A stretch of 64,000 bases of DNA from an uncultured Christensenellaceae bacterium (lineage in GTDB: Bacteria; Bacillota; Clostridia; Christensenellales; UBA3700), in NCBI GenBank assembly GCA_944381315.1, contig CALWKR010000027.1, forward strand, positions 16,353 to 80,352, read 5' to 3'. A program made the position numbers and the translations under genes. Under the pieces are notes generated by a model that did no database searches, was not told the DNA's origin, and was given only the letters and a program-made list of their open reading frames with translations. Positions 1,558-53,336 of this stretch are shown in pieces (positions within the stretch are counted from its first letter, which is position 1; each line of letters opens with the position of its first letter).

Positions 1558-1586
1558 TTGCGCGCGGCGTGAGCGCGTGATATAAT
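1558..1586 (+). promoter_or_regulatory. Sigma-A type promoter of the CDF transporter gene
   Basis: TTGCGC (1558-1563), 17-nt spacer, TATAAT (1581-1586). SD GAGGTGGAG lies just before ATG 1610. Confidence 0.55.
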
Positions 1587-1609
1587 GAATAGACTATCAG
1601 AGGTGGAGC

Positions 1610-2773: not shown

Positions 2774-2780
2774 GGGAAAT

Positions 2781-3377: not shown

Positions 3378-3454
3378 GGTCGGCGTCTGTATTTCTGTTT
3401 TAATGAATAATAATTGAAATACATTGATAATAATTGGCGAAAGGAGAATGAACG

Positions 3455-17512: not shown

Positions 17513-17609
17513 AGCGGCAGAGTAAATACGATGCGTTAAGTGTTGAGGGATGGGATGTCGCCCTCAAACGAAAAGCGAAAGCTTGCGGTATCGTGTTGCG
17601 TCCGCTGCG
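17513..17609 (+). promoter_or_regulatory. THF (tetrahydrofolate) riboswitch, folT motif
   Basis: AGCGGCAGAGUAAAUACGAUGCGUUAAGUGUUGAGGGAUGGGAUGUCGCCCUCAAACGAAAAGCGAAAGCUUGCGGUAUCGUGUUGCGUCCGCUGC. The conserved core (AGAGUA, GCGUUAAGUG, AUGGGAUGUCG, AACGAA, GCGGU, UCCGCU) matches my recollection of the THF-I aptamer. The helices co-vary (UUGAGGG/CCCUCAA, ACGAU/AUCGU). It sits upstream of an ECF S component. Confidence 0.88.
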
Positions 17610-18409: not shown

Positions 18410-19900
18410 CTACTTTCGCAACAGTGCGGCGACGTCGCGGCGCGTGATCGTACCGCTCAGCACGATGTAGAGCGCACAGAAGATCAAAGCGACCACGCCC
18501 GTCACGGCGATCGGCACGAGCGGATGCAGCCGAGACATCAGCGAGGACAGTTGGGACAGCGCAAAAGCCGTGATCGCTGCAAACAAGATCAGCGCCGCGA
18601 GCTGTATCGTCGTTTCGGAAGGGAGATGCGAGTATTTGTGCATAAACAGCAGGTAGGCGCCGAGCGACAGCGTCTGCGCGGCGAGCATCGCGATGAAATA
18701 AGCGTAGATTCCGCAGCTCGAGACGAGCGCCGCCATCAATGCGGCGAGCAACAGCGAGCTTGCCGTACCGGTCGCGAAAGTCAGGCTTTCCTTGCCCAAA
18801 GAGTTGAGCACGGACGTGCAAATGCCGTTGAGGCACATAGGGATCATCGCCGCGCTGGCGACGGAAAGATATTTGCCGGCTGTCGCGTCGTCATAGAGCA
18901 GATTGCCGATCTGCTCGCCGCACGCACAGAAGACAACGAAGAAGAATGCGCTGACGCAGGCGGCGAATTTGACTGCCATTGCGCTCGTGCGCGCGATCTC
19001 GGCGTTGTTGCCCGTTGCGCTCATCGACGCAAGCTCGGGGATCATCACTACGGCGAGGGAGCCTGTCAGCGAAGACGGGATGAACAGCAGAGGCATGACC
19101 ATGCCGCTCGCTCTTCCGAATTCCGCAGTCGCCTGCGCTGCCGTCAAGCCGCAAAGCGAGACGAGCAGAGCAGGAAGGAGAAGAGAGTTGAGAGTGCCTA
19201 TGCCGCTGCCGACGACTCGTGCCGCAGTGAGGGGCGCGGCAGAGGCGAGCACCTTGCGCGCTCCGTGCGGCTTGGCGATCTTGCCGCCTGCGGCGAAATA
19301 GCATACGACGAGCACTGCGACGACGACTACGTCGCCTCCGACAAGCGCGTAGGCATAGGCGGAGTTGTCGGCAAATGCAATGCCCAAACCGCTGATAAAC
19401 AACACGGACAGGATAATTTTGGAGATTTCGTCCAGCAGTTCGGTCGCCGCGAAGACAGCGTAATTCCTCTCGCCCCAAAAACGTCCGCGCAGCGTCGCAT
19501 AGATCGAAGTCGTCGCGAGCAGCGGCAGGCAGGCATAGAACACGGGCACGCATCGGCGATCGGAGAAGATCGCCGAGATCGCGTCGGGAAAGGCGAGCGC
19601 GGCAAGAGTGAGGGCAAGCGCGGCGCCGGAAGATATGAGCAGGCACAGCGACGTCAGACTGTCGCTGCGGCGAGTGTCGCCGAGAGCTTTGTTCTCGGCA
19701 GAGAGGCGCGATAGCGTCACCGGCAGGCCGCTGCTGCCTATGCACGACATCAGCGACAGCACGGACAGGGCGATCTGATAGAGTCCGAGGACTTCGGCGC
19801 CTAGCTCGCGCGAGAGATAGATCTTGAAGAAGAAGGACATCAGCCGCGTAGCCACCGACACGGCGGTGACCAGCGCGAATGCCTTGACGACGCGTTTCAT
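18410..19900 (-). CDS. MOP-superfamily polysaccharide/lipid II flippase (SpoVB/MurJ-like)
   Basis: About 496 aa with many TM helices. MKRVVKAFALVTAVSVATRLMSFFFKIYLSRELGAEVLGLYQIALSV... is typical of polysaccharide biosynthesis proteins and SpoVB. Confidence 0.8.
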   Translation of the reverse strand: MKRVVKAFALVTAVSVATRLMSFFFKIYLSRELGAEVLGLYQIALSVLSLMSCIGSSGLPVTLSRLSAENKALGDTRRSDSLTSLCLLISSGAALALTLAALAFPDAISAIFSDRRCVPVFYACLPLLATTSIYATLRGRFWGERNYAVFAATELLDEISKIILSVLFISGLGIAFADNSAYAYALVGGDVVVVAVLVVCYFAAGGKIAKPHGARKVLASAAPLTAARVVGSGIGTLNSLLLPALLVSLCGLTAAQATAEFGRASGMVMPLLFIPSSLTGSLAVVMIPELASMSATGNNAEIARTSAMAVKFAACVSAFFFVVFCACGEQIGNLLYDDATAGKYLSVASAAMIPMCLNGICTSVLNSLGKESLTFATGTASSLLLAALMAALVSSCGIYAYFIAMLAAQTLSLGAYLLFMHKYSHLPSETTIQLAALILFAAITAFALSQLSSLMSRLHPLVPIAVTGVVALIFCALYIVLSGTITRRDVAALLRK

Positions 19901-19905
19901 ACGCA

Positions 19906-19935
19906 ATTATATGACTTGCGGCGAGCGCCTATGAA
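19906..19935 (-). promoter_or_regulatory. Promoter giving a probable leaderless mRNA (flippase)
   Basis: Read on the minus strand: TTCATA, 18-nt spacer, TATAAT (rc of 19906-19911), then TGCGT, then ATG at 19900. No SD. Confidence 0.45.
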
Positions 19936-19985
19936 AGGCGCGTTCTATCCGCGATCGGCGCGCGTATGTTATAGTGGAGGCAAAC

Positions 19986-20285
19986 ATGAAATATTTTGTA
20001 CATACCGTGCGCGAGGGCGAAGATCTGCATTCCGTCGCGCGCAAGTACGCTGTCTCTGAGCGCGAGATCGCGCGCGACAACAATATAGCCGCGGGAGAAA
20101 AACTGTTTTGCGGCATGAAGCTCGCGATCGTGCGCCGCGACGGCGAATATTATATTGTCAAGCCGTTCGACACCCTGCAAAGCATAGCCGCCGCGCACGG
20201 CGTCGATCCCGACAAGCTCGCCGCGCTCAACGGCATAGAGGGCGGCGCCGTCTTCTTGGGACAGAGCATCTATATCGAAAAATGA
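19986..20285 (+). CDS. LysM-domain protein (two LysM repeats)
   Basis: MKYFVHTVREGEDLHSVARKYAVSEREIARDNNI... and YIVKPFDTLQSIAAAHGVDPDKLAALNGI.... SD GGAGG upstream. Confidence 0.8.
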   Translation: MKYFVHTVREGEDLHSVARKYAVSEREIARDNNIAAGEKLFCGMKLAIVRRDGEYYIVKPFDTLQSIAAAHGVDPDKLAALNGIEGGAVFLGQSIYIEK

Positions 20286-20299
20286 CGAAAGATCGATCA

Positions 20300-20337
20300 T
20301 TGTAACGCTTGACTTTACAACGTTCGAGCGCTATAAT
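20300..20337 (+). promoter_or_regulatory. rrf2 promoter with an overlapping inverted-repeat operator
   Basis: TTGTAA (20300-20305), N9, TTACAA (20315-20320). The repeat spans the -35 TTGACT (20309-20314). The -10 TATAAT lies at 20332-20337. Confidence 0.65.
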
Positions 20338-20356
20338 AGCGGCGAACGGAGGAAAG

Positions 20357-20779
20357 ATGCAGATCTCGTCAAGACTAACGATCGCCACTCACATCTTGTT
20401 GGCGATAGAATATTTCAAGGACAAGTGCAAGACCACGTCCGACTTTCTCGCTTCGAGCGTGCACGTCAATCCCGTGGTCATACGCAGGATATTGCTTCAA
20501 CTGCGCGACGCAGGAATGATCGAGGTCGCGCGCGGCAGCGGCGGCGCGTCGCTCAAAGTCGATCCTTCGCAGATCACTATGCTGGACGTCTATCGAGCAG
20601 TCGACTGTGTGGAGAAGAAGGGCTTGTTCCACTTCCACGAGTCGCCTGATCGCAACTGCCCCGTCGGCAGACGCATCCATGACGTGCTCGACGGCAGGCT
20701 TCAAGCGGCGCAGGCGGCGATGGAGCATTCTCTCGCGTCGACCACGCTCGCGGAACTGCTTGCGGAATTGAAGGACTGA
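20357..20779 (+). CDS. Rrf2 family transcriptional regulator
   Basis: MQISSRLTIATHILLAIEYF...SSVHVNPVVIRRILLQLRDAGMIEVARGSGGASL is the Rrf2 wHTH signature. Only one Cys-containing stretch (CPVG) is seen, so cluster ligation is uncertain. Confidence 0.88.
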   Translation: MQISSRLTIATHILLAIEYFKDKCKTTSDFLASSVHVNPVVIRRILLQLRDAGMIEVARGSGGASLKVDPSQITMLDVYRAVDCVEKKGLFHFHESPDRNCPVGRRIHDVLDGRLQAAQAAMEHSLASTTLAELLAELKD

Positions 20780-20812
20780 GGCGCTTTGCGGCATAGGAAT
20801 TGCGCCCTTGTT

Positions 20813-20837
20813 CGCGGCCGAGCGCCGCGATTTTTTT
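20813..20837 (+). terminator. Rho-independent terminator (copy 1)
   Basis: CGCGGC / GCCGCG stem followed by T7 at 20831-20837. Confidence 0.7.
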
Positions 20838-20907
20838 GCGTTCGCGGAATTGCTTGCCGAGTTGAAAGAGACCGAGGAGCTTTGCGGCATAGGGATCGCG
20901 TTTCGTT

Positions 20908-20932
20908 CGCGGCCGAGCGCCGCGATTTTTTT
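20908..20932 (+). terminator. Rho-independent terminator (copy 2)
   Basis: Identical CGCGGCCGAGCGCCGCG hairpin followed by T7 at 20926-20932. Confidence 0.7.
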
Positions 20933-20958
20933 GCAGAAAAAATTTTTCGAAAAAATTT

Positions 20959-21023
20959 GTTGTAACGCTTGACATTACAACATTGGTACGCTATACTGTC
21001 GTTGTAATCGATAAGGTTACAAC
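20959..21023 (+). promoter_or_regulatory. Promoter of the redox/macro/sirtuin operon with two inverted-repeat operators
   Basis: GTTGTAA-CGCTTGACA-TTACAAC (20959-20981) overlaps the -35 TTGACA (20969-20974). The -10 TATACT lies at 20992-20997. A second GTTGTAA-TCGATAAGG-TTACAAC lies at 21001-21023, around the expected +1. Confidence 0.7.
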
Positions 21024-21052
21024 AAAAAAACAACAATTCGGAGGATACAAAA

Positions 21053-21682
21053 ATGAGCAAAAAGATCGCAGTAGTTTGCGCAAACGGCAGAGTGGGACAG
21101 CTTGTCGTCAAAGAGGCAAAGGACAGAGGCATGGACGTCACGGCGTTCGTCAGGGGCGAGAACAAGACCGTCGCAGACAAGGTCGTCGTCAAGGATCTGT
21201 TCGACATCACCAAGGAAGATCTGAAGGGCTATGACGCTGTCGTCGACGCTTTCGGAGCATGGAAGGAAGAGGATCTGCACCTGCACAGCGAGACGTTGAA
21301 GCATCTGTGCGACTTGCTGTCCGGTTCCGAGACCAGACTCATCTATGTCGGCGGTGCGGGCAGCCTGTACGTCGCTCCCGGGAAGATGCTCTATCAGACG
21401 CCTGAATTCCCCGACGTGTTTCGTCCCCTTGCGAGCGCTCAGGTCAAGACCTATTTTGAGCTCAAAGAGAGGAATGACGTCAAGTGGACATTCGTCAGCC
21501 CTGCCGCAGATTTCCGTGCAGACGGCGCCAGAACGGGCAAGTATCTGCTCGGCGGAGACCAACTCATCGTCGGTTCCAAGGGCGAAAGCGTGATCAGCTA
21601 TGCAGATTATGCGATCGCGGTCGTCGACGAGATCGAAAAGGGCGATCACATCCGCGAGAGGATCAGCGTAGTCGAAGCATGA
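21053..21682 (+). CDS. NAD(P)H-binding atypical SDR / NmrA-like oxidoreductase
   Basis: MSKKIAVVCANGRVGQLVVKEA... (Rossmann GxxGxxG variant). 209 aa, of the YwnB-like type. Confidence 0.8.
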   Translation: MSKKIAVVCANGRVGQLVVKEAKDRGMDVTAFVRGENKTVADKVVVKDLFDITKEDLKGYDAVVDAFGAWKEEDLHLHSETLKHLCDLLSGSETRLIYVGGAGSLYVAPGKMLYQTPEFPDVFRPLASAQVKTYFELKERNDVKWTFVSPAADFRADGARTGKYLLGGDQLIVGSKGESVISYADYAIAVVDEIEKGDHIRERISVVEA

Positions 21683-22107
21683 CGGCTCGGGATTGTTTTG
21701 AGCTGTTGACGCACAAGATACACACGGTCGTCGCCGCCACTTCGGACGGCGGCGATCCCGTGACTTGCGCGATCGACATCATGGACTGCGACGACGGCGG
21801 ACTGTATATTTTGACTGCAAAGAGCAAGAATTTCTACCGCAGGCTCAAAGCTCGTCCGACGATCTCGTTGACGGGCGTATGCGGACGCGACACGATGTCG
21901 AGCGTCGCGATCACGGTCAGGGGCAAAGTGCGCGAGATCGGCGAGTCCGCAGTGCCGCGGCTGTTTCAAAAAAATAGATATATGTACGAGATCTATCCCG
22001 ACGCACGATCGCAGAGCGCGCTGAGCGCGTTCTACATCTGCGAGGGGAGCATAGACGTGTTCGACTTGTCGGTCAAGCCGATCGAGACGCGTCACATAGA
22101 GTGGTGA
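21679..22107 (+). CDS. Pyridoxamine 5'-phosphate oxidase-like (FMN-binding split barrel) protein
   Basis: Start at ATG 21679, overlapping the previous stop (ATGA). The 142-aa size and ...GGLYILTAKSKNFYRRLKARPTISLTG... suggest the PNPOx-like family. Confidence 0.65.
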   Translation: MTARDCFELLTHKIHTVVAATSDGGDPVTCAIDIMDCDDGGLYILTAKSKNFYRRLKARPTISLTGVCGRDTMSSVAITVRGKVREIGESAVPRLFQKNRYMYEIYPDARSQSALSAFYICEGSIDVFDLSVKPIETRHIEW

Positions 22108-22110
22108 AAC

Positions 22111-22917
22111 ATGACCCAGCGACAGAGAAGAGAATATTTGATTGCGGCGCTGCTTGCCGAAGATCCGCGCTTTCGCGGCATAAAGACGCCCGAAAGCGAC
22201 GATGAAGCAAAGCAATTGCTGAGAGCGCTGTTCAACGTCAGAGCTCCGCGTCCCGTCGACGCGGAATTTTTGTGTATCCAGGACGAATATCTCAGGGCGG
22301 AGACAGAGGCAAAGGGCATCGTCTCGATCGACGATCTGACGCCTGTCGGAGAGAGGATATATCTGTGGCAGGGAGACATCACGCGGCTAAAATGCGACGC
22401 GATCGTCAATGCCGCCAACTCGCAAATGCTGGGATGTTTTGTCCCGTGTCACGGCTGCATAGACAACGCCATACACACATATGCCGGAGTGCAGCTGAGA
22501 GCAGAATGCGCAAAGATCATGCGCGAGCAAGGGCATGAAGAGCCGACGGGCCGAGCCAAGATCACCGCTGCATACGATCTGCCGTGCAGATATGTGCTGC
22601 ACACCGTAGGCCCGATCGTGAGAGGCAGAGCGCCGAGCAAGCGCGACTGCGAGCTGCTTGCGTCGTGTTATCGCTCATGTTTGGAGCTCGCGCAAGAGGA
22701 AGGTTTGCACAGCATAGCGTTTTGTTGCATTTCAACGGGGGAGTTCGGTTTTCCCAACGAGGCGGCGGCGAGGATCGCCGTCGACACCGTCAGCGATTTT
22801 GTTGCCGCCGATGACAGCGGCATGGAGGTGATCTTCGATGTTTACAAAGACAGGGACGCTCAGATCTACTCCTCAATATTGGGAGCAGACGCAGAGAGTG
22901 CGCAACGCGATCGATGA
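22111..22917 (+). CDS. Macrodomain protein (protein ADP-ribose hydrolase, sirtuin-linked type)
   Basis: WQGDITRLKCDAIVNAANSQMLGCFVPCHGCIDNAIHTYAGVQLR...HTVGP...AFCCISTGEFGFP. This is the macro signature with a Cys/His-containing insertion. Confidence 0.85.
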   Translation: MTQRQRREYLIAALLAEDPRFRGIKTPESDDEAKQLLRALFNVRAPRPVDAEFLCIQDEYLRAETEAKGIVSIDDLTPVGERIYLWQGDITRLKCDAIVNAANSQMLGCFVPCHGCIDNAIHTYAGVQLRAECAKIMREQGHEEPTGRAKITAAYDLPCRYVLHTVGPIVRGRAPSKRDCELLASCYRSCLELAQEEGLHSIAFCCISTGEFGFPNEAAARIAVDTVSDFVAADDSGMEVIFDVYKDRDAQIYSSILGADAESAQRDR

Positions 22918-23716
22918 CGCCGACGCGATCTTGATCGGCGCCGGCGCAGGGCTTTCGACGTCGGCAGGATTGACATATTCGGGCGAGAGGTTCCGCAAAT
23001 ATTTCGGCGACTTTGCCGACAAATACGGCATAAGAGACATATATTCGGGCGGATTTTATCCATTCGAGGATGAGGAATCCTATTGGGCATGGTGGTCGCG
23101 CCACATATATTACAATCGCTACGACGTGCCTGCCGGCAAGCCCTATCTCGACTTGCTCGCGCTGGTCGAAGGCAAAAACTATTTCGTCTTGACGACCAAC
23201 GTCGATCACCAATTCAGACTCGCCGGCTGCGACAAGGCGCGGCTCTTTTACACGCAGGGCGACTATGGGCTGTTTCAATGCAGCGTTCCGTGCTGCGAGA
23301 AGACGTTCGACAACGAGCAGTCCGTGCGTGCGATGGTAGCCGCGCAGCGCGATATGCGCGTGCCGAGCGCGCTCATACCGCGCTGTCCCGTATGCGGCGC
23401 TCCCGTGGTCCCCAACCTCAGATCGGACGACAAATTCGTCGAGGACGAAGGATGGCACGCCGCTACGTCACGCTATGAGGACTTTGTGCAAAAGTATGGC
23501 GGCGGCAAGCTTGTACTGCTTGAACTCGGTGTGGGAGCCAATACCCCGGGCATAATCAAATTCCCGTTTTGGCGGATCGCGGCGCAGAACAAAAATGCGC
23601 TGTATTGTTGCGTCAACAAGGGCGAAGCGTTCGCTCCCGACGCGATAGCGGACAGGGCGGTGTGCCTTGACGCAGACATAGGCGAGGCGATCGCGGACAT
23701 AGCTCGCCGAGGATGA
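22838..23716 (+). CDS. SIR2-family protein, class M-like sirtuin (candidate protein ADP-ribosyltransferase)
   Basis: ILIGAGAGLSTSAG, VLTTNVDHQF and QGDYGLFQC (Q where canonical sirtuins carry the HG histidine). Zn-ribbon Cys pairs CSVPCC and CPVCG. The ATG overlaps the macro gene by 80 nt; an alternative GTG lies at 22898. Confidence 0.8.
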   Translation: MFTKTGTLRSTPQYWEQTQRVRNAIDDADAILIGAGAGLSTSAGLTYSGERFRKYFGDFADKYGIRDIYSGGFYPFEDEESYWAWWSRHIYYNRYDVPAGKPYLDLLALVEGKNYFVLTTNVDHQFRLAGCDKARLFYTQGDYGLFQCSVPCCEKTFDNEQSVRAMVAAQRDMRVPSALIPRCPVCGAPVVPNLRSDDKFVEDEGWHAATSRYEDFVQKYGGGKLVLLELGVGANTPGIIKFPFWRIAAQNKNALYCCVNKGEAFAPDAIADRAVCLDADIGEAIADIARRG

Positions 23717-23757
23717 CAAAAAAAAGAAGGGCGCGGCTTGATGCCGCGCCCTTTTTG
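23717..23757. terminator. Bidirectional rho-independent terminator between convergent genes
   Basis: A-run at 23717-23725, AGGGCGCGGC (23728-23737) / GCCGCGCCCT (23743-23752), T-run at 23752-23756. Confidence 0.85.
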
Positions 23758-23769
23758 TTGCGTTGACCG

Positions 23770-26700
23770 TCAGCGCTTGTCGCCGCCGGAATTGTTGTCG
23801 CTTCTCCTGTCGTTGGATCTGTTGACGGGAGCGGTCTGCTTCTTGCGGGTGGTGAACTTGCGGCTGTGCGTGTACTTCTTGACGAGCACGACGATGACGA
23901 CCACAAGCAGGATCACGCCGATGACGCCGGTGGTGATCCACACCCAGATCAGATCGGAGCCTGTCGGTTCCTCGGTCGGGTCGGTCTCTTCGGGTTCTTC
24001 TTCTGCGTCGGCGTCTTCTTGAGTGAATGTGATCGACCAATTGTTGCCGACTGCCATATCCTCGCCGGTCGCCGCGGTGAATTCTTCCTCGGTGATCTTG
24101 TCGATCGAGAAGTTGTCGAAGAACGCATATCCGTCGATCATCGCGCCGTCAAAGCCGAGCTGCGCGGTCATCGTTGCGGTGGGGGTGACTCCCTCTTCGG
24201 TGTGCAGATAGAAGGTGTAGCACTTCCAGTCTCCGACAGTTTCGGCGCCGTCTTCGGAATAGGTCGACGTGTTGATCTTGCGATCTGCGTCGTTGTCGTC
24301 GACATTGTTCTGTCTGCCGAAGGTGTAGGACAAGTTGTTGAGCTTGAGGGACAGGGTGGCGGTCTCGTCTTGGTCAAGTCCGTATGTCAGCACCCAGATG
24401 CTCACCTTGTAATAGGTGTCGCCCTCGAGAGTGACGCTGTCCGAAGTGAACGCATATGCGCCGTCGATCTTGTTGTTGATGACGAGCACGTTGTCGCCGA
24501 GCACGCTGTCGCCGAGCTTGGTGCTCGCTTCGAGCTTGTTAGCGATCGCAGATTGTTCGGCGCTGTCGGGATCGATGCCGAGCAGCGACCAGTCGCCCTC
24601 GCGCTGATTGAATATGCCGCCGACAAAGTCGTCGTCCGCAGTGCTTGCGTCTTCGTCCACTGTCGCGCCCGTCCAGTTGTCGGGAGCGGAGATCTCGGCG
24701 AGATCGGATGAGCTGTCAAACGAGTCGATGACGAAAGACTTGACGGTGTTGTAGTCGGTCTCCGTGTCAGCGCTCTGCGCCGCGTCGAATGCCGATTCGG
24801 TGATCGCGGCATAGTTGGCGATCGCGAAGTATGCGGTGTTGAACGAACCGGAGGAGGAACTCGTACCTACTCCTACCGTCATCGTGACGTCGACGGAAGT
24901 GAAGCCCGTTCTGACATAGAATGCATAGAAGTGCCAATTGCTGTCGGTGGGTGCGAAGGTGGTCATCTCCGCACTGTCGGTGGACGCGTCGAGAGATACC
25001 GTGATCGTGCTCTTGCCGTCAGTCTTTGCCCAAATGCCGAGCAAGTAGTACGAGGACGCGGACAGCGAGACGCTGTCGCTCTCATATGTCACATAGTCCG
25101 CGCTGCGGACAGCGAGCACGTTGGGATAGGTATCCGTGTCGGCTCCGACAATGCCGATCGAGTCGTAGAAGAGATCGGGATCGATCGTGTCGAAGGCGCC
25201 GGTGATGTTGGAGCTGTCGAGCTGAGCGGAGTTGCCGAGATCGAGGACGCCGGCGACGGTCTGACCGTCGGTGAGGGCGGAGGACTTGTTGATCGTCCAG
25301 CCGTCGGGCACGCCGAGGTAATCGACGAGATCGCCGTTGTCGCCAAAGACGGTTTTGCCCTCTTCCGCCGCAACGTCGGCATATGCCGACTGAGTGGCGG
25401 CGACGTCGATGAACTCAAAGTAGCCGTTGGAGGACAGCTCTGCGCTGCCGCTGCTGCCGAGCAGCGAGACAGACTTGACGACCGTGCTCGTCGAGACGGA
25501 AGAGTACTCGCTGTATTCGATGGGCTCGATCGTGATCGTGGATACGAATGCATAGCCGGACAGCATCGTCGTCGGCGACATTGCGGTGCCGCTACCGAAG
25601 CCGATGTCGAGACCGACTTGGGTGGGACCGTCGTTGGCGCCTTTGATCACGAATCTGAATTCGGTATAATCGTTGTTGCCCTCGCTGCGGTAGTCCTCGA
25701 GATCTTCGGTGTTGATCGATGTGAACGACGAGAGCTGAGTCTTGCGCTCGTCCTCTTTCGCGCTCTCGTCATAGGAGAACAGCGCGAGAGTGACGCCCGA
25801 ACCCGACGGGATGTCTTGGGTCTTGACCCAGACGGAGATGATGTAGCAGCGGTTGCGTTCGATCGTATAGGTCGCGTTGGTGTCTTCTCCGACTGTGGAC
25901 AGAGAGAAGGACGACGGCTTGTAGTTGTTGATCACAAGCACGCTCGAGTCCCAAGCGGGGACGGGAGCGCCCGGATTTTCGAGCCCCGGGAAGAGCTCGG
26001 GAGCCGTCCAAGTTTCGCCTTCCGCTACGGAAGTGTCGACGGTCTGCCAATTGGTGCGGTCTGCGATCAAGTTGTCGTTGTCCGCAACGCTGAACGAGCC
26101 GACAGTCAAAGAGTCGCGGTCAAGCTCGTCTTCGTCGGTGAGGAATGACACGGTGTTTTCTTCGTCGGCCGCGTCGTCGTAGGTCGCTTTGTCGATGGTC
26201 TGCAAGGTCACGCCGTCGAAGAACGCGACGCCCGTGACGTGCGTATCGGTGTTGTCGGCGCCGCCTCTGCCCAGCCACAGCTCAAGATAGACGTCCGTGG
26301 AACGGAATTGGTTGGCGGCGACAAAGATCTCGATCGTCGACCATTCGCCGTTCGTGACGATGTTGCCCTTTTCGAAATAAGGAACGCTCGTATTGGAGCC
26401 GTCGGTGAGGGCGACGGTCACGCCGTTGCCGACGATGTTTGCGGTGCGGACCTTGACGGAGACTTTGTAGTAGCTGTCATTGCCGCCCATCAAGCGCATA
26501 GCCGCAGAGCTGCGGTAGCCGTATGCGGTCGCGCGTCTGTTGTTGATCATCAGCATCTTGGTGCCGACGGTGCCGGGAGCGACCGTGACTTGGACGTCGG
26601 TCCCATCGGCCGCTTCGACCGAAGTCGTGACGGTGGAATCGATGATGCCCTTGCTGGCATAGGTGGAAGAGGAGGGCGCGTTGTCGCCGTCGCCTCTGCC

Positions 26701-27582
26701 TGCGACGCCCGTCCACTTGGACGCGGTGTACGGAGCCGAGGTCGTCGTCGAGTAGTCAAACTCGCCGTCCGAGACCTTCATAGTATATTTGGCGGTCGTG
26801 TCGTCCGCGGTGATCGCCGCGAAGTCTTCGGCAGTGAATTCTTCTTCGCCGTCTTCGACGTCGGAGAGATTTTCGAGCTTGACGTCGTCAAAGTAGGCAT
26901 AGCCCTGCGTCAGCGCGCCGCCCGAAAGATTGCCGTCGCCCAAAGAGAGTACCACGGTGATGCTCTGCGACGAGATGTCGGACGTCTCGATGTAGACGGT
27001 GTATTGAGTCCACTCGCGTTCGGTGTCGATCGCCTTGAACGCCGCATACGCCGCGCCGTTGACATAGATGTATGCGCCGCTCTTGTCGGTGAAGTCCTCT
27101 GCCTCGTCGTCAATGTCGGTATATACCCAGACCGTCAGCTTGTAATAGGACGAGGTCGCGAGCGATACAGACGCAGAAGTGTACTTGTAGACCGTGGGCA
27201 CTTTGTTGTACAACATCAAGATGTTGTCGTCCTCGACGCCTTCCGGTTTGGAAGGATTGGCTACGTTGCCGTAGGTACCCCTGTTGTCGCTGTACACGTC
27301 GGGATCGACGCTTATGACGCCTGCGATGAGGTTGTCGGAGCCGCTCGGAGTGGCGTTGGAGCCGCTGGAGCTGCCGCGAGAACCCGTCCAGTTGGTCGGG
27401 GTAAGGGGGTAGGTATTGCCCGTTGTGCTGCCGAACGTGCCGTTGGTGAAAAGTCCGTTCTCGGTCTCGGCGCTGGGAATGTCGGCAGGAGTCTCGGGAT
27501 CGCACGCCGCGACGCCGATGACAAGAGCGACACAGAGCATCAGAGATACCAATGCAAGGCACAGTCGTCTTTTTGTGTTCAT
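23770..27582 (-). CDS. 1270-aa cell-surface protein: lipoprotein signal, five tandem CBM-like jelly-roll modules, acidic linker, C-terminal TM anchor
   Basis: MNTKRRLCLALVSLMLCVALVIGVAAC. Five modules of about 200-240 aa each carry NWTG/W.., (L/V)(M/V)INN, S.SV.L....SYYK(L/V)(T/S)VWV.T and GYA(Y/F)FD(D/N). The C-terminus reads DLIWVWITTGVIGVILLVVVIVVLVKKYTHSRK.... SD AAAGGTGG upstream. Confidence 0.85.
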   Translation of the reverse strand: MNTKRRLCLALVSLMLCVALVIGVAACDPETPADIPSAETENGLFTNGTFGSTTGNTYPLTPTNWTGSRGSSSGSNATPSGSDNLIAGVISVDPDVYSDNRGTYGNVANPSKPEGVEDDNILMLYNKVPTVYKYTSASVSLATSSYYKLTVWVYTDIDDEAEDFTDKSGAYIYVNGAAYAAFKAIDTEREWTQYTVYIETSDISSQSITVVLSLGDGNLSGGALTQGYAYFDDVKLENLSDVEDGEEEFTAEDFAAITADDTTAKYTMKVSDGEFDYSTTTSAPYTASKWTGVAGRGDGDNAPSSSTYASKGIIDSTVTTSVEAADGTDVQVTVAPGTVGTKMLMINNRRATAYGYRSSAAMRLMGGNDSYYKVSVKVRTANIVGNGVTVALTDGSNTSVPYFEKGNIVTNGEWSTIEIFVAANQFRSTDVYLELWLGRGGADNTDTHVTGVAFFDGVTLQTIDKATYDDAADEENTVSFLTDEDELDRDSLTVGSFSVADNDNLIADRTNWQTVDTSVAEGETWTAPELFPGLENPGAPVPAWDSSVLVINNYKPSSFSLSTVGEDTNATYTIERNRCYIISVWVKTQDIPSGSGVTLALFSYDESAKEDERKTQLSSFTSINTEDLEDYRSEGNNDYTEFRFVIKGANDGPTQVGLDIGFGSGTAMSPTTMLSGYAFVSTITIEPIEYSEYSSVSTSTVVKSVSLLGSSGSAELSSNGYFEFIDVAATQSAYADVAAEEGKTVFGDNGDLVDYLGVPDGWTINKSSALTDGQTVAGVLDLGNSAQLDSSNITGAFDTIDPDLFYDSIGIVGADTDTYPNVLAVRSADYVTYESDSVSLSASSYYLLGIWAKTDGKSTITVSLDASTDSAEMTTFAPTDSNWHFYAFYVRTGFTSVDVTMTVGVGTSSSSGSFNTAYFAIANYAAITESAFDAAQSADTETDYNTVKSFVIDSFDSSSDLAEISAPDNWTGATVDEDASTADDDFVGGIFNQREGDWSLLGIDPDSAEQSAIANKLEASTKLGDSVLGDNVLVINNKIDGAYAFTSDSVTLEGDTYYKVSIWVLTYGLDQDETATLSLKLNNLSYTFGRQNNVDDNDADRKINTSTYSEDGAETVGDWKCYTFYLHTEEGVTPTATMTAQLGFDGAMIDGYAFFDNFSIDKITEEEFTAATGEDMAVGNNWSITFTQEDADAEEEPEETDPTEEPTGSDLIWVWITTGVIGVILLVVVIVVLVKKYTHSRKFTTRKKQTAPVNRSNDRRSDNNSGGDKR

Positions 27583-27848
27583 TTAACCACCTTTATGTTG
27601 ATTATTTGTCTATTATAATATTTTCCTTTTATTATAACAAAAACATTATAATCAATGCGCGCGAAAAAATCAATTAAATACGACTGAAAAAATAAGATAA
27701 GACAGCAATTTGGTTTTCGGCGGCACGCGGCGCGGCTGCGGCGATCGCGGCTTTGCCGCATGCGTCGGAGCCCGAAAGCCGTCGGGCATAGAGTCTCGAT
27801 CGACATTCGAAATCGCAAAAATCTGCGACCTGTATGCGGTTTTCGCCA

Positions 27849-28286
27849 TTATTTTTGCGGCATAGAATACGGAAGATCGCGCCTTATGATCGCTAGGACG
27901 GCGAGCCTCAGCTTGTCTTTGAGCATTGCGAGCGCGTCAAAGATCATCATCGCCGCCCCGAGGACCGCCAAGAATATGCCGAAGCCGCGCGACAACATTC
28001 GGTCGTCGGAGCCGATCGCTATCAGCGAAAATACCGCGCAGACTGCCGCCGCAGGGATCGCAAACTCGGTGATCCTGTCCTTTTGGAGCAAGCCGTTTTT
28101 TGCATGCGAGATCAGCGCGATCGCCGCCATCGGGACAAATCCGATCAAGTTGATCGCCGCCGCAGTCTTTTGCGGCACTCCGGCAAAGAGAGTCATCAGC
28201 GGTATCAGCAGCGTCCCTCCGCCGAGCCCCATACCTCCCAATATGCCGCCGACAACTCCGATCGCTATCAGTGCGAAAGTTTTCAT
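27849..28286 (-). CDS. TauE/SafE family anion exporter, C-terminal-half-like subunit
   Basis: MKTFALIAIGVVGGILGGMGLGGGTLLIPLM.... 145 aa, 4 TM helices. Its start overlaps the upstream stop (ATGA at 28283-28286). Confidence 0.7.
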   Translation of the reverse strand: MKTFALIAIGVVGGILGGMGLGGGTLLIPLMTLFAGVPQKTAAAINLIGFVPMAAIALISHAKNGLLQKDRITEFAIPAAAVCAVFSLIAIGSDDRMLSRGFGIFLAVLGAAMMIFDALAMLKDKLRLAVLAIIRRDLPYSMPQK

Positions 28287-28657
28287 AGCGCGAGCTTGAG
28301 CCCCGCCGCGATCATCAAAACGTAGAAGATGTGCGTCAGCAGCGTCGAATTTATTTTTTTGAGCAGCAGCGCGCCCAGAACTCCGCCTGCGATTATCCCT
28401 GCGCACGACGGCAGCGCGACTTGGATCGGCGCGGCTCCCTTCGCAAAATAGATCGCTCCGCTGATCAGCGTCAGCGGCAAGATGACTGCGACTGCGGTCG
28501 CGTGCGCCTTCTTTGGCTCGACCCTCGAGAGCGTGAGGGCAGGGACGGCGATCATCCCTCCGCCGCCTCCGAACAGTCCGCCGACTATCCCGACGGCGAT
28601 CCCGGCGAGCACGGAAAAGACTTTGACAGACCTGCGATATTTTGCGACGACTTGCAT
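28283..28657 (-). CDS. TauE/SafE family anion exporter, N-terminal-half-like subunit
   Basis: Start moved to ATG 28657 (MQVVAKYRRSVKVFSVLAGIAVGIVGGLFGGGGGMIAVPAL...). 124 aa. Confidence 0.7.
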   Translation of the reverse strand: MQVVAKYRRSVKVFSVLAGIAVGIVGGLFGGGGGMIAVPALTLSRVEPKKAHATAVAVILPLTLISGAIYFAKGAAPIQVALPSCAGIIAGGVLGALLLKKINSTLLTHIFYVLMIAAGLKLAL

Positions 28658-28740
28658 GACGATAGTGTGGCACGCTGCGGCGGATCTATCCGCTGCGATC
28701 ACTTGCGGCGATATGCGTCTTTGTTCATTGATTTTTTCGG

Positions 28741-28856
28741 CATATGAGCGAATGCGCAGACGTGTGCGCGCACATATGCCGATATGGACATATGGCGAGA
28801 CGCCGACGGAGCGTTTGCGCATATGCGCTTGCCGTCATTGAAAAGCGGAGCATATG
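28741..28856. repeat. Cluster of five CATATG hexamers in a divergent intergenic region
   Basis: CATATG at 28741, 28773, 28789, 28820 and 28851, plus a GATATG at 28781. The palindrome TGTGCGCGCACA lies at 28762-28773. Confidence 0.6.
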
Positions 28857-28938: not shown

Positions 28939-29202
28939 GTGGAGATGGAAGAGATGACGACGCGCGCCCGTGAAGAGGCGCGCTACATATCGGAGACAGG
29001 GTGTACGCTGAGAGCTTGCGCCGCCGTGTTCGGAGTCGGCAAAAGCACCGTGCATACCGACGTGACCAAGCGGCTCAAAGACGTCGATCCCGTGCTGTAC
29101 GCCCAAGTCGAGCAGGTGCTGGGAGCCAATCTTGCGGACAGACATCTGCGCGGAGGGCGCAGTACAAAGCTCAAATATCTGAGAGAGAAAAAACAGAGTT
29201 AA
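28939..29202 (+). CDS. spoIIID: Sporulation transcriptional regulator SpoIIID
   Basis: ...ISETGCTLRACAAVFGVGKSTVHTDVTKRLKDVDPVLYAQVEQVL...RHLRGGRSTKLKY matches the SpoIIID HTH and basic tail. The start is ambiguous (GTG 28939, ATG 28945 or ATG 28954). Confidence 0.9.
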   Translation: MEMEEMTTRAREEARYISETGCTLRACAAVFGVGKSTVHTDVTKRLKDVDPVLYAQVEQVLGANLADRHLRGGRSTKLKYLREKKQS

Positions 29203-31058: not shown

Positions 31059-32387
31059 ATGGACAAAAAGAGACCCAATATAGTGGTGTTTTTCACCGAT
31101 CAACAGCGATGGGACACGATCGACGAGCGCGTCGCTCCCAACCTCTGCGCGATGGCGTCGGAGGGCACGACGTTTGACGACGCGTTCACCTGCCAGCCCG
31201 TATGCGGACCGGCTCGGGCTTGCATCCAGACCGGAGTCTATGCGACGCGCAACGGCTGCATCACCAACGCCGTTCCTCTCGACGAGGACGCGGATACGAT
31301 CGCAAAGATATTGGGGCGCAACGGCTATGATACCGCATATGTGGGCAAGTGGCACCTCGCGTCGGGACAGACGGAGAGCGAGGGGAGATACGAGACGACC
31401 GCCGTCCCCGAGCGCAGACGCGGAGGCTATCGCTATTGGCGCGCTGCCGACGTGCTCGAATATACGTCGGACGGCACGGGCGGCTTTGTGTTCGACGAAG
31501 ACGGCAACAAGCTCACGTTCGAGGGCTGCCGCGCCGACAGGCTGACCGACTATGCCGTCGAATATATCGAGCAGACCGATCGGGACAAGCCATTCTTTCT
31601 CTTCGTCTCGTACTTGGAGCCGCATCACCAAAACACGAGCGGCAGATTTGAATGTATGCCCGACGACAGACGCGCGGTCGAACAGGTCCCCGTGCCGCCC
31701 GATCTGCTGCCGTTCAAGGGCAATTATGAAGACAACTATACCGATTATCTCGGCTGCTGTCACGGGCTCGACCGCAACTTCCGCCGCGTCGTCGACGCGC
31801 TCAAAGCCAACGGCGCCTATGACGACACAGTCATCTTTTTCACGTCCGATCACGGCTGTCACTTCATGACTCGCAACGGCGAATACAAGCGCTCTTGCCA
31901 CGAGGCGAGCATACACATCCCGATGTTCGCTTTCGGCGGCGCCTATCCCAAAGGGGAGAAGAGCGGCGCGCTTGTCAGCCTGCTCGATCTGCCTGCGTCC
32001 GTCGTTGCCGCCGCAGGCGTCGAAGTCCCGAGCTACTTTGACGGCAAGGATATGGCAAAGATATGCGCGGGACAGGACTCGCGCGACGCAGTCTACATCC
32101 AGATCAGCGAGGACAAACTCGGCAGGGCGGTCCGCACCGAGCGCTACACCTATGCGATAAAGTCGCCGCGCAAGTCGGACGCGTGGGGCACGCCGTATTC
32201 GGACGTCTATGTCGAGGACTATCTCTATGACCTCGACGTCGATCCGTGCGAGACGCGCAATCTCATCCATGACCGCAACTATCAATCGGTCAAGGCAGAG
32301 CTCGCCGCCACGCTCAAAAGGTGCGCAGCAAAAGCAGGAGAGCCGCCGTTCAAGATCAGGTACAGACTGATCGCTCCCAAGAAGTAA
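31059..32387 (+). CDS. Cys-type sulfatase (arylsulfatase family)
   Basis: PNIVVFFTDQQRWD...QPVCGPARACIQTG (C-x-P-x-R formylglycine motif)...GKWHL...FTSDHG. Confidence 0.9.
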   Translation: MDKKRPNIVVFFTDQQRWDTIDERVAPNLCAMASEGTTFDDAFTCQPVCGPARACIQTGVYATRNGCITNAVPLDEDADTIAKILGRNGYDTAYVGKWHLASGQTESEGRYETTAVPERRRGGYRYWRAADVLEYTSDGTGGFVFDEDGNKLTFEGCRADRLTDYAVEYIEQTDRDKPFFLFVSYLEPHHQNTSGRFECMPDDRRAVEQVPVPPDLLPFKGNYEDNYTDYLGCCHGLDRNFRRVVDALKANGAYDDTVIFFTSDHGCHFMTRNGEYKRSCHEASIHIPMFAFGGAYPKGEKSGALVSLLDLPASVVAAAGVEVPSYFDGKDMAKICAGQDSRDAVYIQISEDKLGRAVRTERYTYAIKSPRKSDAWGTPYSDVYVEDYLYDLDVDPCETRNLIHDRNYQSVKAELAATLKRCAAKAGEPPFKIRYRLIAPKK

Positions 32388-32551
32388 ATTGCGACAAAAT
32401 GCACGAGTTTATGGACAAATCGGGCGAATATGTTCGAAAACCGTATCTTTTTGCCGCAGATTTTTTGTGTAATTTTACTTGATTTTTACATTACACTATT
32501 ATAGAATATAGAAAAACGGCAATTTAGTCGTAAATGAAAAAGGAGAAAGAT

Positions 32552-33577
32552 ATGAAGAAAATCGCAATGATCGCAGTCGTGTGCGTTATCGCAGCAGTGA
32601 CCGCATTCTCGTTTTCGGCATGCAATCCGGACGAATTGAGCCTCAGCAATGAAGTTGTGACTCAACAACCTAATGTTACGCCTACTGCAACACTTGATGA
32701 TAGCATGAGTGCGATCGAGATGTTGGAAGTCGGCATGGAGAACTATTACGGCTCAGATTTTGCAGTTGCAAGAACGACCGGAGCCCTTGTCACTGATGTT
32801 TTGTCGATGAAACTTACGCAGTTTGTTAAATCCGTTACGCTCAGAGAGGGTGCTGCCGATGAAGACAACAAGCTGTTCTATCAAAATATGTCCGGTACAG
32901 CGCCGTCCGGCTTGCTTGGATCTGCCATCGTCATCAAGATCTGGGAAGAGACCGACTATGAGAAGACCGGAAACACCGAGGATATTTATTTCCGCGGAGC
33001 AGACACCGACAAACTTAACATCGATAAACACGAAGAAAATGGCGTCATCACCGACGCTTGGCTCGAGTGGCAAGATGGCGTCGTGAGCTTTATGCCGACC
33101 GAGCAATATAACGATCTCACGACCTATGTAAAAGAAAAAGCTTCCGATCCCACCAAGATGTGGATGTACGACATCAACGAGAACACCATTCTTTCCGACA
33201 AGACGGTCGCTCCCACATACAACGAAGAGGGTGGTTATTATGAGTTCTCCGTCTCCGGCAATGTGGACGCAAACAGCCCCAACTATTCGGTCGAAGAGTA
33301 TGAGAAACAGATGCTCTACATGCTTCAGAGCCAAGGTCAGAAACCGTCCAAATTCTACTTCACCGAGATCACTCTCGATGTGCAGATTTGGCCCAATGGT
33401 TTCTTGCGTCAGGTCGAAGTTACCGAGTCTTATATGATGGTCTTGATGGGCTTTGTAAACTCGGAAGTCACTCTTGAGTCGACCAAGGCGTTCTTCTTTG
33501 AGGAAGATAGCCTTCCCGAAGATGAAGCTTTTGATCTCGACCAGATCGGTTCCGTCAAGGCTACTTACAGCGCTTGA
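32552..33577 (+). CDS. Lipoprotein of unknown function, A/T-richer codon usage than neighbours
   Basis: MKKIAMIAVVCVIAAVTAFSFSAC, with AAGGAG SD and its own promoter and terminator. No family recognised. Confidence 0.7.
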   Translation: MKKIAMIAVVCVIAAVTAFSFSACNPDELSLSNEVVTQQPNVTPTATLDDSMSAIEMLEVGMENYYGSDFAVARTTGALVTDVLSMKLTQFVKSVTLREGAADEDNKLFYQNMSGTAPSGLLGSAIVIKIWEETDYEKTGNTEDIYFRGADTDKLNIDKHEENGVITDAWLEWQDGVVSFMPTEQYNDLTTYVKEKASDPTKMWMYDINENTILSDKTVAPTYNEEGGYYEFSVSGNVDANSPNYSVEEYEKQMLYMLQSQGQKPSKFYFTEITLDVQIWPNGFLRQVEVTESYMMVLMGFVNSEVTLESTKAFFFEEDSLPEDEAFDLDQIGSVKATYSA

Positions 33578-33746: not shown

Positions 33747-33778
33747 AATTATATATAAACTATGAGAAGGAGCTTTTG

Positions 33779-34681
33779 ATGTCAAGGATAAAGCCAACAT
33801 CAGCCATGATTGCCAACATTGTCGCACTGCTGTGCTTTGTCGCGGCGATGGCTGTCGCGAGCGTCTACGACCTTCAGATCAGTCGAGCTTTGTCCGACGG
33901 AGACTCCTTCTTTGCGCAATTTTTCGCCGTGTTCGGCGAGTATCCCGCCTATCTCGTCCTGCCCGTCGCAGGAGTCATCATTTCATACAACTACGACCTG
34001 TTTACCTCTGTCGGTGCAAGGGCGGCGGTCCGCGTCGTCGGCGCTGCGCTGTCGGTGGGCGGATGGATATTTTTCGGCTTTCAGGGCACCAAGCTGACCG
34101 AAGTGCCTCATCTTGCCGGCTTTGCGATAGTGTTCGGCGTCTTGCTCGGCGCTCTCGGCTTGTGGCTGGGATCTCTGATCGAGCGCGAAAAGATGCACAG
34201 GCTGTTCAAGTTCGCCGTTTTTGCAGTTGCGTTCACCCTTGTCTCCGTCGTCGTTATGCAGGTGATGAAGCACATTTGGTGCCGCATGCGCTACCGCGAT
34301 ATGCTCAAAGCAGGCAGCGAGGACGGCTTTACTCCGTGGTACAAGATCATGCTCGGCAGAGATCAGGTCGAGGGCTTTGACTATACTTCTTTTCCGTCGG
34401 GACACACTTCGAGCGCGGCGCACATATTTTTGCTTGCCGCGCTTTGCGATATCATCCCGTCGTGGCGCAAGAAGGGCGTGCGCGTCGCCGTAAACGCCGT
34501 CTGCGTCGTGTTCACCGTCGTGGTCGCGCTTTCGCGCATAGTCGCCAACGCTCACTTCTTGTCCGACGTGCTTGTCGGCGGCTATTTGACATATTTGATC
34601 TATCTGGCTTTGAAGAAGGTCTTTTTCGGCAAGGGCAAATACAACTTCGCGATAGCCGAAGGGATCGGGGGAGAGGAATGA
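33779..34681 (+). CDS. PAP2 superfamily membrane phosphatase (copy 1)
   Basis: KHIWCRMRY (K-x6-R-Y instead of K-x6-RP), PSGHTS, SRIVANAHFLSD (SR-x5-H-x3-D). N-terminal multi-TM extension. Confidence 0.82.
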   Translation: MSRIKPTSAMIANIVALLCFVAAMAVASVYDLQISRALSDGDSFFAQFFAVFGEYPAYLVLPVAGVIISYNYDLFTSVGARAAVRVVGAALSVGGWIFFGFQGTKLTEVPHLAGFAIVFGVLLGALGLWLGSLIEREKMHRLFKFAVFAVAFTLVSVVVMQVMKHIWCRMRYRDMLKAGSEDGFTPWYKIMLGRDQVEGFDYTSFPSGHTSSAAHIFLLAALCDIIPSWRKKGVRVAVNAVCVVFTVVVALSRIVANAHFLSDVLVGGYLTYLIYLALKKVFFGKGKYNFAIAEGIGGEE

Positions 34682-41455: not shown

Positions 41456-41725
41456 TCATTGCGCGTTCTTCAATTCGTTCTCATATTCTTTGAGGATCGT
41501 ATCGGAGAAGAGCTCGCGTGTCTCCGTGTCGAGGGGATGCGCGATGTCGCGATAGTGTCCCTCCGGAGTTTTGCGGCTGGGCATCGAGATGAAGAGCCCT
41601 GCCTTTCCTTGGATGATCTTGATGTCATGAAGGACAAAGCATCCGTCGATCACGACCGAAGCGACCGCTTTGAGCAGTTCGTTGTCCTTTGTCACCAACC
41701 TTATCTTTACGTCACTGAGTTGCAT
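41456..41725 (-). CDS. spoVG: Septation/sporulation regulator SpoVG
   Basis: MQLSDVKIRLVTKDNELLKAVASVVIDGCFVLHDIKIIQGKAGLFISMPSRKTPEGHYRDIAHPL. The start is placed at ATG 41725, after GGGAG. Confidence 0.93.
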   Translation of the reverse strand: MQLSDVKIRLVTKDNELLKAVASVVIDGCFVLHDIKIIQGKAGLFISMPSRKTPEGHYRDIAHPLDTETRELFSDTILKEYENELKNAQ

Positions 41726-42027
41726 ATACACACTCCCAAAAATTAATTATCTTAATTATATTATGATGTCATTTTTTTGGCAAGGATTTTGGCGTCAAAA
41801 ATCAAAAATTTCGTAAATTTGCGTGCAAACAACGCATTTGCGACAAAAAAGGTACTTTGTTTGTACCTCACATGGCGACCGTTTTGTGCATAAGTGTTGC
41901 CGAACGTACAAACATTGCCGCCCCGAGCGCGCCCTTTTTGACAAAAGCTTGCGATATCGGCGCTCGGGATCCGAGCAAGCGCGCCGTCCGACGGTACAAC
42001 GCGCGTTCGACGCGCATATAATAGAGT

Positions 42028-53278: not shown

Positions 53279-53291
53279 ACTCAACGACAAG

Positions 53292-53317
53292 GGGACCGCG
53301 GAATGCGGTCCCTTTTT
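53292..53317 (+). terminator. Rho-independent terminator
   Basis: GGGACCGC / GCGGTCCC followed by T5. Confidence 0.85.
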
Positions 53318-53336
53318 CATGCAAAAAAATTAACGC

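Follow-up and report, generated by a model that had tools for sequence, protein, structure and literature searches.

The subject of this analysis is a gene from an uncultured Christensenellaceae bacterium, found in a stretch of 64,000 nucleotides (nt) of contig CALWKR010000027.1 in the NCBI GenBank assembly GCA_944381315.1 (referred to below as the window, with positions counted from its first nucleotide). It lies on the minus strand (23770..27582) and encodes a protein of 1270 amino acids (aa) which, judging from the open reading frame (ORF) listing, its homologs and their alignment, consists of a lipobox signal peptide, five jelly-roll modules, a transmembrane (TM) helix and a basic tail; we refer to it here as the five-module gene. 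An initial annotation made from the sequence alone had called the same ORF, and we find it to be real, with 68 homologs (E down to 0), 35 genome loci, and a start codon supported by a Shine-Dalgarno (SD) sequence. The protein begins with MNTKRRLCLALVSLMLCVALVIGVAAC, and this assignment is supported because the SD sequence AAAGGTGG (27587..27594, minus strand) sits 4 nt before the ATG; the SD motif AAAGGTGGT is kept upstream of most orthologs.

The region 5' of the start codon is AT-rich and holds two overlapping promoter-like sites of the sigma-70/sigmaA type found by a consensus scan (TTGATT-17-TATAAT and TTGTTA-17-TATAAT; 27612..27673, minus strand), and 17 nt past the stop codon starts an intrinsic-terminator-like hairpin whose 11-bp stem includes 9 GC pairs, with a T-run behind it (23727..23753, minus strand). 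A sigmaA-type promoter (TTGnnn-17-TATAAT with at least 10 of 12 matches) precedes the gene in 37 of 44 loci compared to 1 of 44 for a coding-region control, with a mean best score of 9.8 versus 8.5 in composition-matched shuffles. Its spacer is 17 nt long, its TATAAT is perfect in most cases, and it is located some 45–70 nt upstream of the start. The conserved promoter and ribosome-binding site suggest strong vegetative expression, and the protein is probably made constitutively and in abundance in growing cells. An RNA leader or riboswitch near the gene was also considered and rejected.

Five mutually homologous modules of about 200–220 aa each lie between the two ends of the protein. Module 1 (aa 39–240; 26863..27468, minus strand, as are the others) was delimited by hidden Markov model (HMM) boundaries and characterised by AlphaFold2, Foldseek and per-module identity, and modules 2 (aa 256–469; 26176..26817), 3 (aa 478–692; 25507..26151), 4 (aa 713–935; 24778..25446) and 5 (aa 947–1168; 24079..24744) by hhalign, module HMMs and a model of the ectodomain, with per-module identities available for the last three. 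Plain self-BLASTP of the protein found no internal repeats; all 10 module pairs matched in hhalign profile–profile comparison (probability 98–100%, E = 1e-14 to 1e-44), using profiles that were sub-alignments cut from an alignment of 41 of the 68 homologs, and at this level the five divergent copies proposed in the initial annotation are confirmed. Every module HMM detects all five modules and finds no other match in the six-frame translation of the window. The joint alignment has the signature NG.F ... P..WTG ... nvL.I.Nk ... ay.y.s.s..l....yYk.SvwvkT ... W..y.fyv ... LG.g ... G.affdn, and includes all of the motifs noted earlier (NG.F, NWTG, (L/V)(M/V)INN, SYYK.SVWV.T and GYAFFD) together with conserved Tyr/Ser stripes and Trp residues. 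Module 1 is the most conserved, followed by module 5, with modules 3 and 4 the least. The ectodomain as a whole (~127 kDa) is acidic and rich in Thr, Ser and Asp (isoelectric point (pI) ~4; Thr+Ser 22%, Asp+Glu 15%), with only two Cys in its mature form.

An AlphaFold2 model of module 1, built from a 28-sequence alignment, has 12 strands and one short helix (predicted local distance difference test (pLDDT) 89.1, predicted template-modelling score (pTM) 0.88). In a Foldseek search of the PDB its top matches were carbohydrate-binding modules (CBMs), including CBM70 (4d0q), CBM4-2 (2y64), CBM61, CBM16, the CBM4 of CelK and CBM22, all with a probability of 1.0, at 12–16% identity and with template-modelling (TM-) scores of up to 0.72 when normalised to the target; MAM domains were also among the matches. 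All five modules are beta-rich in the model of the whole ectodomain (aa 28–1200; 1,173 residues, pLDDT 84.4, pTM 0.66), for which the structure search returned domain-by-domain likeness only, to Cry protoxins, reelin repeats, tandem CBM22, the surface glycan-binding protein (SGBP) SGBP-B and ANXUR, with global TM-scores of ~0.1. On these models the modules are CBM4/9/22-type beta-jelly-rolls (galactose-binding-domain-like), in agreement with the likeness that had been proposed from sequence motifs, and they do not point to a fold other than a beta-sandwich.

The assignment holds for the fold, and does not extend to direct membership of a CBM sequence family. Searches of Pfam, NCBIfam and PDB sequences with the whole protein gave no meaningful match, with no Pfam or CBM HMM found even at E <= 10, and the module 1 profile matched no PDB chain. 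Two distant full-length members of the family (P0053 with 42.4 bits and P0056 with 30.4 bits) pass the gathering cut-off of 25.9 for the Pfam family CBM_4_9 (PF02018), and at the sequence level the link from our protein to CBM_4_9 is only transitive, through these two. The modules share the beta-jelly-roll fold and the motif logic of CBM4/9/16/22/61/70 (an NG.F...W start, a Y.lS.WVkT strand and a terminal G.aFFDdv strand), but are longer (~200–220 aa compared to ~140–170 aa) because of inserted loops and the helix, and the identity with solved CBMs does not exceed the range given above. The definition of a CBM in CAZy includes attachment to a catalytic domain, whereas the modules here are appended to none: the HMMs and the model account for the whole ectodomain as five jelly-rolls, and Pfam, NCBIfam and PDB searches confirm the earlier statement that no catalytic domain is present.

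The N-terminus is a signal peptide ending in a lipobox (aa 1–27, ...GVAA-C27; 27502..27582, minus strand), with the layout MNTKRR-LCLALVSLMLCVALVIG-VAA-C27 of a basic n-region, a hydrophobic h-region and the lipobox itself. In the alignment of 41 sequences, C27 is invariant (41/41) and A26 is conserved in more than 90%, although the homologs are otherwise only 25–74% identical, and the lipobox Cys is found at position 26–30, preceded by an n-region rich in K/R and then a hydrophobic core. The strict Gram-positive G+LPP pattern fits 30 of the 41, and ten of the other eleven differ only by a Phe at -3; the exception, P0020, has a long N-terminal extension and its start is probably mis-called. 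A PROSITE-like lipobox pattern fits 95 of 141 representatives of the wider family described below. Lipid modification of C27 is predicted from these features.

At the other end, module 5 is followed by a juxtamembrane strand recognised by per-column conservation (family consensus NN[YF]RIVFT.EDA, predicted as a strand at model residues 1154–1159) and an acidic linker (together aa 1169–1210; 23953..24078, minus strand), the TM helix (aa 1211–1233; 23884..23952) and a tail with a pI of 11.4 (aa 1234–1270; 23773..23883), reading ...EEEPEETDPTEEPTGSDL-IWVWITTGVIGVILLVVVIVVLV-KKYTHSRKF...GGDKR in which IWVWITTGVIGVILLVVVIVVLV is the TM segment. The helix is present in all 41 members with a mean hydropathy above 2.2, and is followed in each by a tail of 12–46 aa with a net charge of +2 to +14. 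Both anchors claimed in the initial annotation are therefore borne out at the sequence level, as C27, the helix and the basic tail are each found in 41/41, and the possibility that the Cys is not part of a lipobox is not supported. The topology we predict from this has the tail in the cytoplasm and the ectodomain outside. Conserved residues form a stripe on one face of the helix (W1213 in 93%, I1216 in 90%, G1219 in 76% and G1222 in 66%), which suggests specific helix packing and not a generic anchor. Many members of the family also share a cytoplasmic C-terminal motif, K/R-D-x-F/Y-x-K/D (e.g. KRDQFGK, KDKYSK and DEFKD; P0020–P0062 and P0106–P0238 provide examples), whose aromatic residue is missing from the protein in the window and from those nearest to it, which end in ...GGDKR.

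We rejected the protein as a sortase substrate because no LPxTG precedes the C-terminal helix in any of the 41 members; the sequence at the start of the helix here is ...TEEPTGSDL-IWVW..., without L-P-x-T-G spacing, and a match to the NCBIfam LAXTG model is at noise level (E = 0.059). LocateP recognises 'C-anchored' proteins as one of seven Gram-positive classes, none of which combines this with lipid anchoring (PMC2375117). Our protein fits the definition of the C-anchored class in having an N-terminal export signal, a C-terminal helix, a positive tail and no LPxTG, and differs by its added N-terminal lipobox and by a long tail (12–46 aa among members). Lipid-plus-helix anchoring is a design that is not listed in standard Gram-positive localisation schemes, and our literature searches turned up neither this family nor surface proteins with a lipobox and a C-terminal TM helix.

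The initial annotation had considered this architecture unusual; we would rather describe it as undocumented but not rare, as hundreds of sequence clusters belong to the family that it characterises. Most of the 68 homologs are full-length and 25–74% identical to our protein, and an exhaustive HMMER search with the module 1 profile returned 1,351 cluster representatives (at 50% identity) at E <= 1e-3 and 444 at E <= 1e-30. These are typically 1,000–1,800 aa in length with 4–8 modules, the first of which starts around residue 40. In the best 141 new representatives, which we surveyed for architecture, type (a) proteins have a lipobox, 5–8 modules, a TM helix and a basic tail (both anchors are recognised by crude rules in 80 of the 141, and several of the others are truncated ORFs), and type (b) proteins of ~1,050–1,150 aa have four modules, an N-terminal anchor that looks uncleaved, and at the C-terminus a coiled coil rich in K/E which replaces the TM helix. 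Type (b) proteins come from low-GC organisms (e.g. P0178 at 695–4045 of locus L047, with similar proteins in P0166–P0245). The closest genomes are metagenome-assembled genomes of uncultured Christensenellaceae/Christensenellales from the gut, such as Candidatus Ornithoclostridium, at 68–69% identity, and the 35 genomes yielded one locus each with one copy per locus. All of the public names found for members of the family are 'hypothetical protein'. The jelly-roll fold and the idea of non-catalytic arrays of CBMs on cell surfaces are already known; what is new is a module family that escapes Pfam, conserved double anchoring by lipobox and TM helix, and a conserved neighbourhood, none of which is described in the sources that could be searched.

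These properties could be accommodated by an S-layer-like coat or spacer, in which the jelly-rolls are protein–protein building blocks of an abundant membrane-anchored lattice with no specific glycan binding. The composition of the ectodomain is S-layer-like, a near-consensus promoter, strong SD sequence and strong terminator, each of them conserved, suggest high expression, the pTM over 1,173 residues suggests a defined and rigid arrangement of the modules in the model, the conserved face of the TM helix suggests oligomerisation, and the gene has core status. We nevertheless think a coat quite unlikely, as Pfam and NCBIfam searches found neither SLH nor CWB2, nor any other domain known to anchor S-layers or form their lattice, and a membrane anchor at both ends is, to our knowledge, not a known bacterial S-layer design. 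Type (b) proteins, in which a TM segment at the N-terminus and a coiled coil at the C-terminus take the place of the two anchors, also count against it, though this exchange would be compatible with putative oligomerisation.

A locus search using a 15-sequence alignment gave the 35 genome loci; the fetched loci number 47, and ~45 contexts were examined for neighbouring genes. The conserved order is PP-loop, SpoIIID-like, two half-size TauE genes, the five-module gene, tandem LysM, MOP flippase, the S-component of an energy-coupling factor transporter (ECF-S), DUF421, DUF4363 and UvrA, with DegV also nearby; the PP-loop gene is present in 28 of 35 loci. The TauE/TSUP pair (~27849–28274 and 28283–28822, minus strand; PF01925) consists of two genes which each match half of the model, and it adjoins the five-module gene in all 33 Christensenellales loci with upstream DNA as well as in six distant loci (L036, L039, L042, L044, L046 and L047). 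In the closest relatives the pair runs in the same direction as the five-module gene, and elsewhere the two are divergent. The listed ORF at 27849–28673 has a long spurious N-terminal extension and its real start is probably near 28274.

This adjacency raises the possibility that the protein is an accessory or sensor subunit, with its TM helix packed on the half-size TauE pair (4+4 TM segments) or on the flippase and its ectodomain sensing or gating, much as the heavy-chain subunits of eukaryotic heteromeric transporters. The pair stays next to the gene despite orientation flips and differences in the wider context, and the conserved helix face and shared cytoplasmic motif would suit such a partnership. 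We find this barely plausible, however, as we know of no bacterial precedent, TauE genes are absent beside four of the loci (L038, L041, L043 and L045), and type (b) relatives keep the TauE neighbour yet lack the C-terminal TM helix. It also counts against this that sequence does not allow the substrates of TSUP proteins to be predicted (PMC5840216).

Between the PP-loop gene and the TauE pair lies a gene for an 87-aa SpoIIID-like helix-turn-helix regulator (28939..29202, plus strand; TIGR02844, matched along the entire model with 84 bits where the equivalog cut-off is 111.5), which holds the same position in 32 loci. On the other side, a small tandem-LysM protein of 103 aa with no signal peptide (19974..20285, plus strand; PF01476, 71 bits in two stretches) is encoded immediately 3' of the five-module gene in 35 loci (33 of the 35 genome loci). 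In the window this gene is hidden under a longer antisense ORF (19929–20300, minus strand), which was resolved by a gene map scored by codon usage. Further downstream is a gene for a flippase of the MOP superfamily (Polysacc_synt, SpoVB/MurJ-like; 18410..19906, minus strand; PF01943, and TIGR02900 SpoVB with 182 bits, below the cut-off), found on the same strand as the five-module gene in 33 of 35 loci and in L042, L043, L046 and L047.

The presence of these families would be explained if the protein were associated with the sporulation envelope or cortex, acting with the SpoVB-like flippase and the LysM, DUF421/YetF-like and SpoIIID-like neighbours. The SpoIIID-like, SpoVB-like, signal-less tandem-LysM and DUF421 genes are all syntenic and of sporulation-linked families; the DUF421 members YetF and YdfS of Bacillus are spore inner-membrane proteins (PMC10126465), and the conserved genes of sporulation include spoVB and spoIIID (bioRxiv 10.1101/2022.02.25.481979). 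Against this, both spo-family matches fall below the NCBI equivalog cut-offs, the conserved promoter belongs to the vegetative sigmaA type and not to the sigmaE, K, F or G types, and the 64-kb window contains no unambiguous sporulation-specific gene. Cultured Christensenellaceae are, moreover, described as non-sporulating, and we regard this explanation as very improbable.

The core block of TauE, five-module, LysM, flippase, DUF421 and DUF4363 genes recurs around relatives of only ~25% identity (L042 and L046) and around the type (b) relative L047 despite its different anchors, with UvrA found there too. In other lineages an Rnf operon takes the place of the upstream part. The window itself has an insertion of 3.4 kb between the five-module and LysM genes (20309..23716, plus strand) which was assigned by Pfam and NCBIfam to an Rrf2 regulator, an NAD(P)-binding/NmrA-like protein, a Macro-domain protein and a SIR2-like protein. 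None of these four genes was found in the 47 fetched loci (0/47), and the insertion is not part of the conserved block. The Macro-domain and SIR2-like ORFs overlap by 80 nt as called, and their pairing is reminiscent of SirTM/macrodomain ADP-ribosylation modules.

One reading, which takes up the glycan-capturing or adhesion scaffold suggested in the initial annotation, is that the array captures exogenous glycans, holding dietary or host polysaccharide or mucin for degradation and uptake, or else attaches the cell to a surface. The best structural matches (CBM70, which binds hyaluronan, CBM4, which binds xylan or glucan, CBM61 and CBM16) would fit this, as would the gut-dwelling habit of the host organisms, the fast evolution of the middle modules that is expected of environment-facing surfaces, and a sulfatase gene 3.5 kb away (31059..32387, plus strand; PF00884 and SGSH_C), though this recurs in only 7 related loci and has no evident link to the TauE pair. 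The non-catalytic tandem layout also has a domain-level structural likeness to Bacteroides SGBP-B (PDB 7kwb), which like our protein (in its case by prediction) is an N-terminally lipidated chain of beta-sandwiches. The global TM-score with SGBP-B is nevertheless only 0.11–0.22, there is no sequence homology, and SGBPs lack the C-terminal TM helix. SGBPs are found on the diderm outer membrane and are encoded in polysaccharide-utilisation loci beside SusC/D. Such utilisation genes have no counterpart in the context of the five-module gene: the genes adjoining it in the ~45 contexts include none for a glycoside hydrolase, polysaccharide lyase or sugar transporter. Proteins that capture nutrients through CBMs are also typically variable and multi-copy, whereas this one is a single-copy gene with cell-wall-themed neighbours at a fixed locus and of constant architecture across an order-level clade, a genomic context which argues against nutrient capture. 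As a doubly tethered protein its reach would in addition be at most ~11 nm by our estimate, a poor geometry for contact beyond the wall. Capture of exogenous glycans therefore seems to us possible but somewhat unlikely.

The reading we prefer, though tentatively and short of conviction, is that the protein may be an abundant housekeeping envelope component of Christensenellales-type Clostridia which engages the cell's own wall glycan at the interface of membrane and wall, and not a scaffold for nutrient capture. After export, Cys27 would be lipid-modified, the C-terminal helix would stay in the membrane, and the basic tail would remain in the cytoplasm. The acidic five-module ectodomain would then be stapled as an arch on the outer face of the cytoplasmic membrane because of the lipid at its N-terminus and the membrane-retained helix at its C-terminus. 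With five modules of ~4–5 nm each, we estimate that such an arch could reach at most about half of its contour length (no more than ~11 nm). Conservation of the modules next to the anchors and divergence of those in the middle is the pattern that might be expected of a doubly tethered arch with an exposed apex. The modules would bind polysaccharide, and the double tether, together with the constant company of genes for a LysM protein and a MurJ/SpoVB-type flippase for lipid-linked glycans, makes the cell's own wall glycan (nascent peptidoglycan or a wall polysaccharide) a likelier ligand than one from the diet or the host. The protein would in this case organise the inner zone of the wall or serve there as a multivalent scaffold.

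Several observations weigh against this preference for a role in the wall. The divergence of the middle modules would equally suit exposure to a variable external ligand, the protein itself has no direct match to any CBM HMM, and the jelly-roll fold also serves functions other than glycan binding, as the MAM domains, Cry protoxins and reelin repeats among the structural matches illustrate. The TauE pair and the flippase are not universal, both being missing at L038, L041 and L045. The neighbours also include genes of unrelated function (UvrA, PP-loop, ECF-S and Rnf), so that the synteny may reflect inherited gene order and not a functional link. In the window, the opposite-strand insertion separates the five-module gene from the LysM and flippase genes, and because of this insertion and the gene's own promoter and terminator, we rejected an operon with the flippase in this genome.

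CBM-like modules carried on a single TM helix are also found in the plant CrRLK1L malectin-like proteins ANXUR1/2, whose ectodomains were among the structural matches of the whole-ectodomain model, and in the RsgI-type sensors of Clostridium thermocellum, both of which face the cell wall. ANXUR and RsgI-type proteins carry a cytoplasmic kinase or anti-sigma domain; our protein, in contrast, has a cytoplasmic part consisting of just the basic tail of 37 aa, and its gene has neither a sigma nor an anti-sigma gene beside it. Going further than the role proposed above, our protein might be the prototype of a large unannotated family of Clostridia envelope proteins, in which the stapled CBM-fold arch, LysM protein, MurJ/SpoVB-type flippase and heterodimeric half-size TauE transporter together form an unrecognised module for cell-wall (or cortex-like) assembly or organisation in thin-walled gut Firmicutes, although we consider this extension unlikely.

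Christensenellales have a prominent place in the gut microbiota, are heritable and associated with health, and are hard to culture; the gene described here is a core and probably abundantly expressed 130-kDa surface component of theirs that has no name in any database. Should it organise the cell's own wall glycan, it would be a new component of envelope assembly; should its ligands instead be glycans of the host or the diet, it would form a major point of contact with the gut environment and be a candidate for an antigen or phage receptor. Either way, a Pfam/dbCAN family model is merited, with which hundreds of 'hypothetical proteins' could be annotated.

Elsewhere in the window there are other large lipoproteins, as had been noted before (32534–33577, 50312–53278 and 53385–54509 on the plus strand, and 3–1010 on the minus strand). 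Paralogy of the five-module protein with these was rejected, as the module HMMs match none of them. The lipoprotein at 3–1010 carries Flg_new repeats, and the two lipobox proteins at 50312–53278 (988 aa) and 53385–54509 (374 aa) have no Pfam match. The codon-usage score of the 988-aa protein is very high, and the ORF at 50015–53320 on the minus strand is an antisense shadow of its gene. The 347-aa lipoprotein at 32534–33577 matches nothing in Pfam or NCBIfam and is followed by a PAP2 phosphatase gene (33776–34681, plus strand), and both are syntenic in ~20 related loci. Genes for SpoVG (41456–41731, minus strand; an equivalog-level match) and MurC (42028–43380, plus strand) are also present, and both families occur near the distant members L038, L042 and L046. 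A tetrahydrofolate (THF) riboswitch (17516–17609, plus strand; Rfam RF01831, 80.7 bits) is found immediately 5' of a folate-family ECF S-component gene, and as the called start of this gene (17593) overlaps the riboswitch, its real start is probably further downstream. A second riboswitch, of the ZMP/ZTP type (63767–63848, plus strand; RF01750, 50.5 bits), lies near the end of the window.

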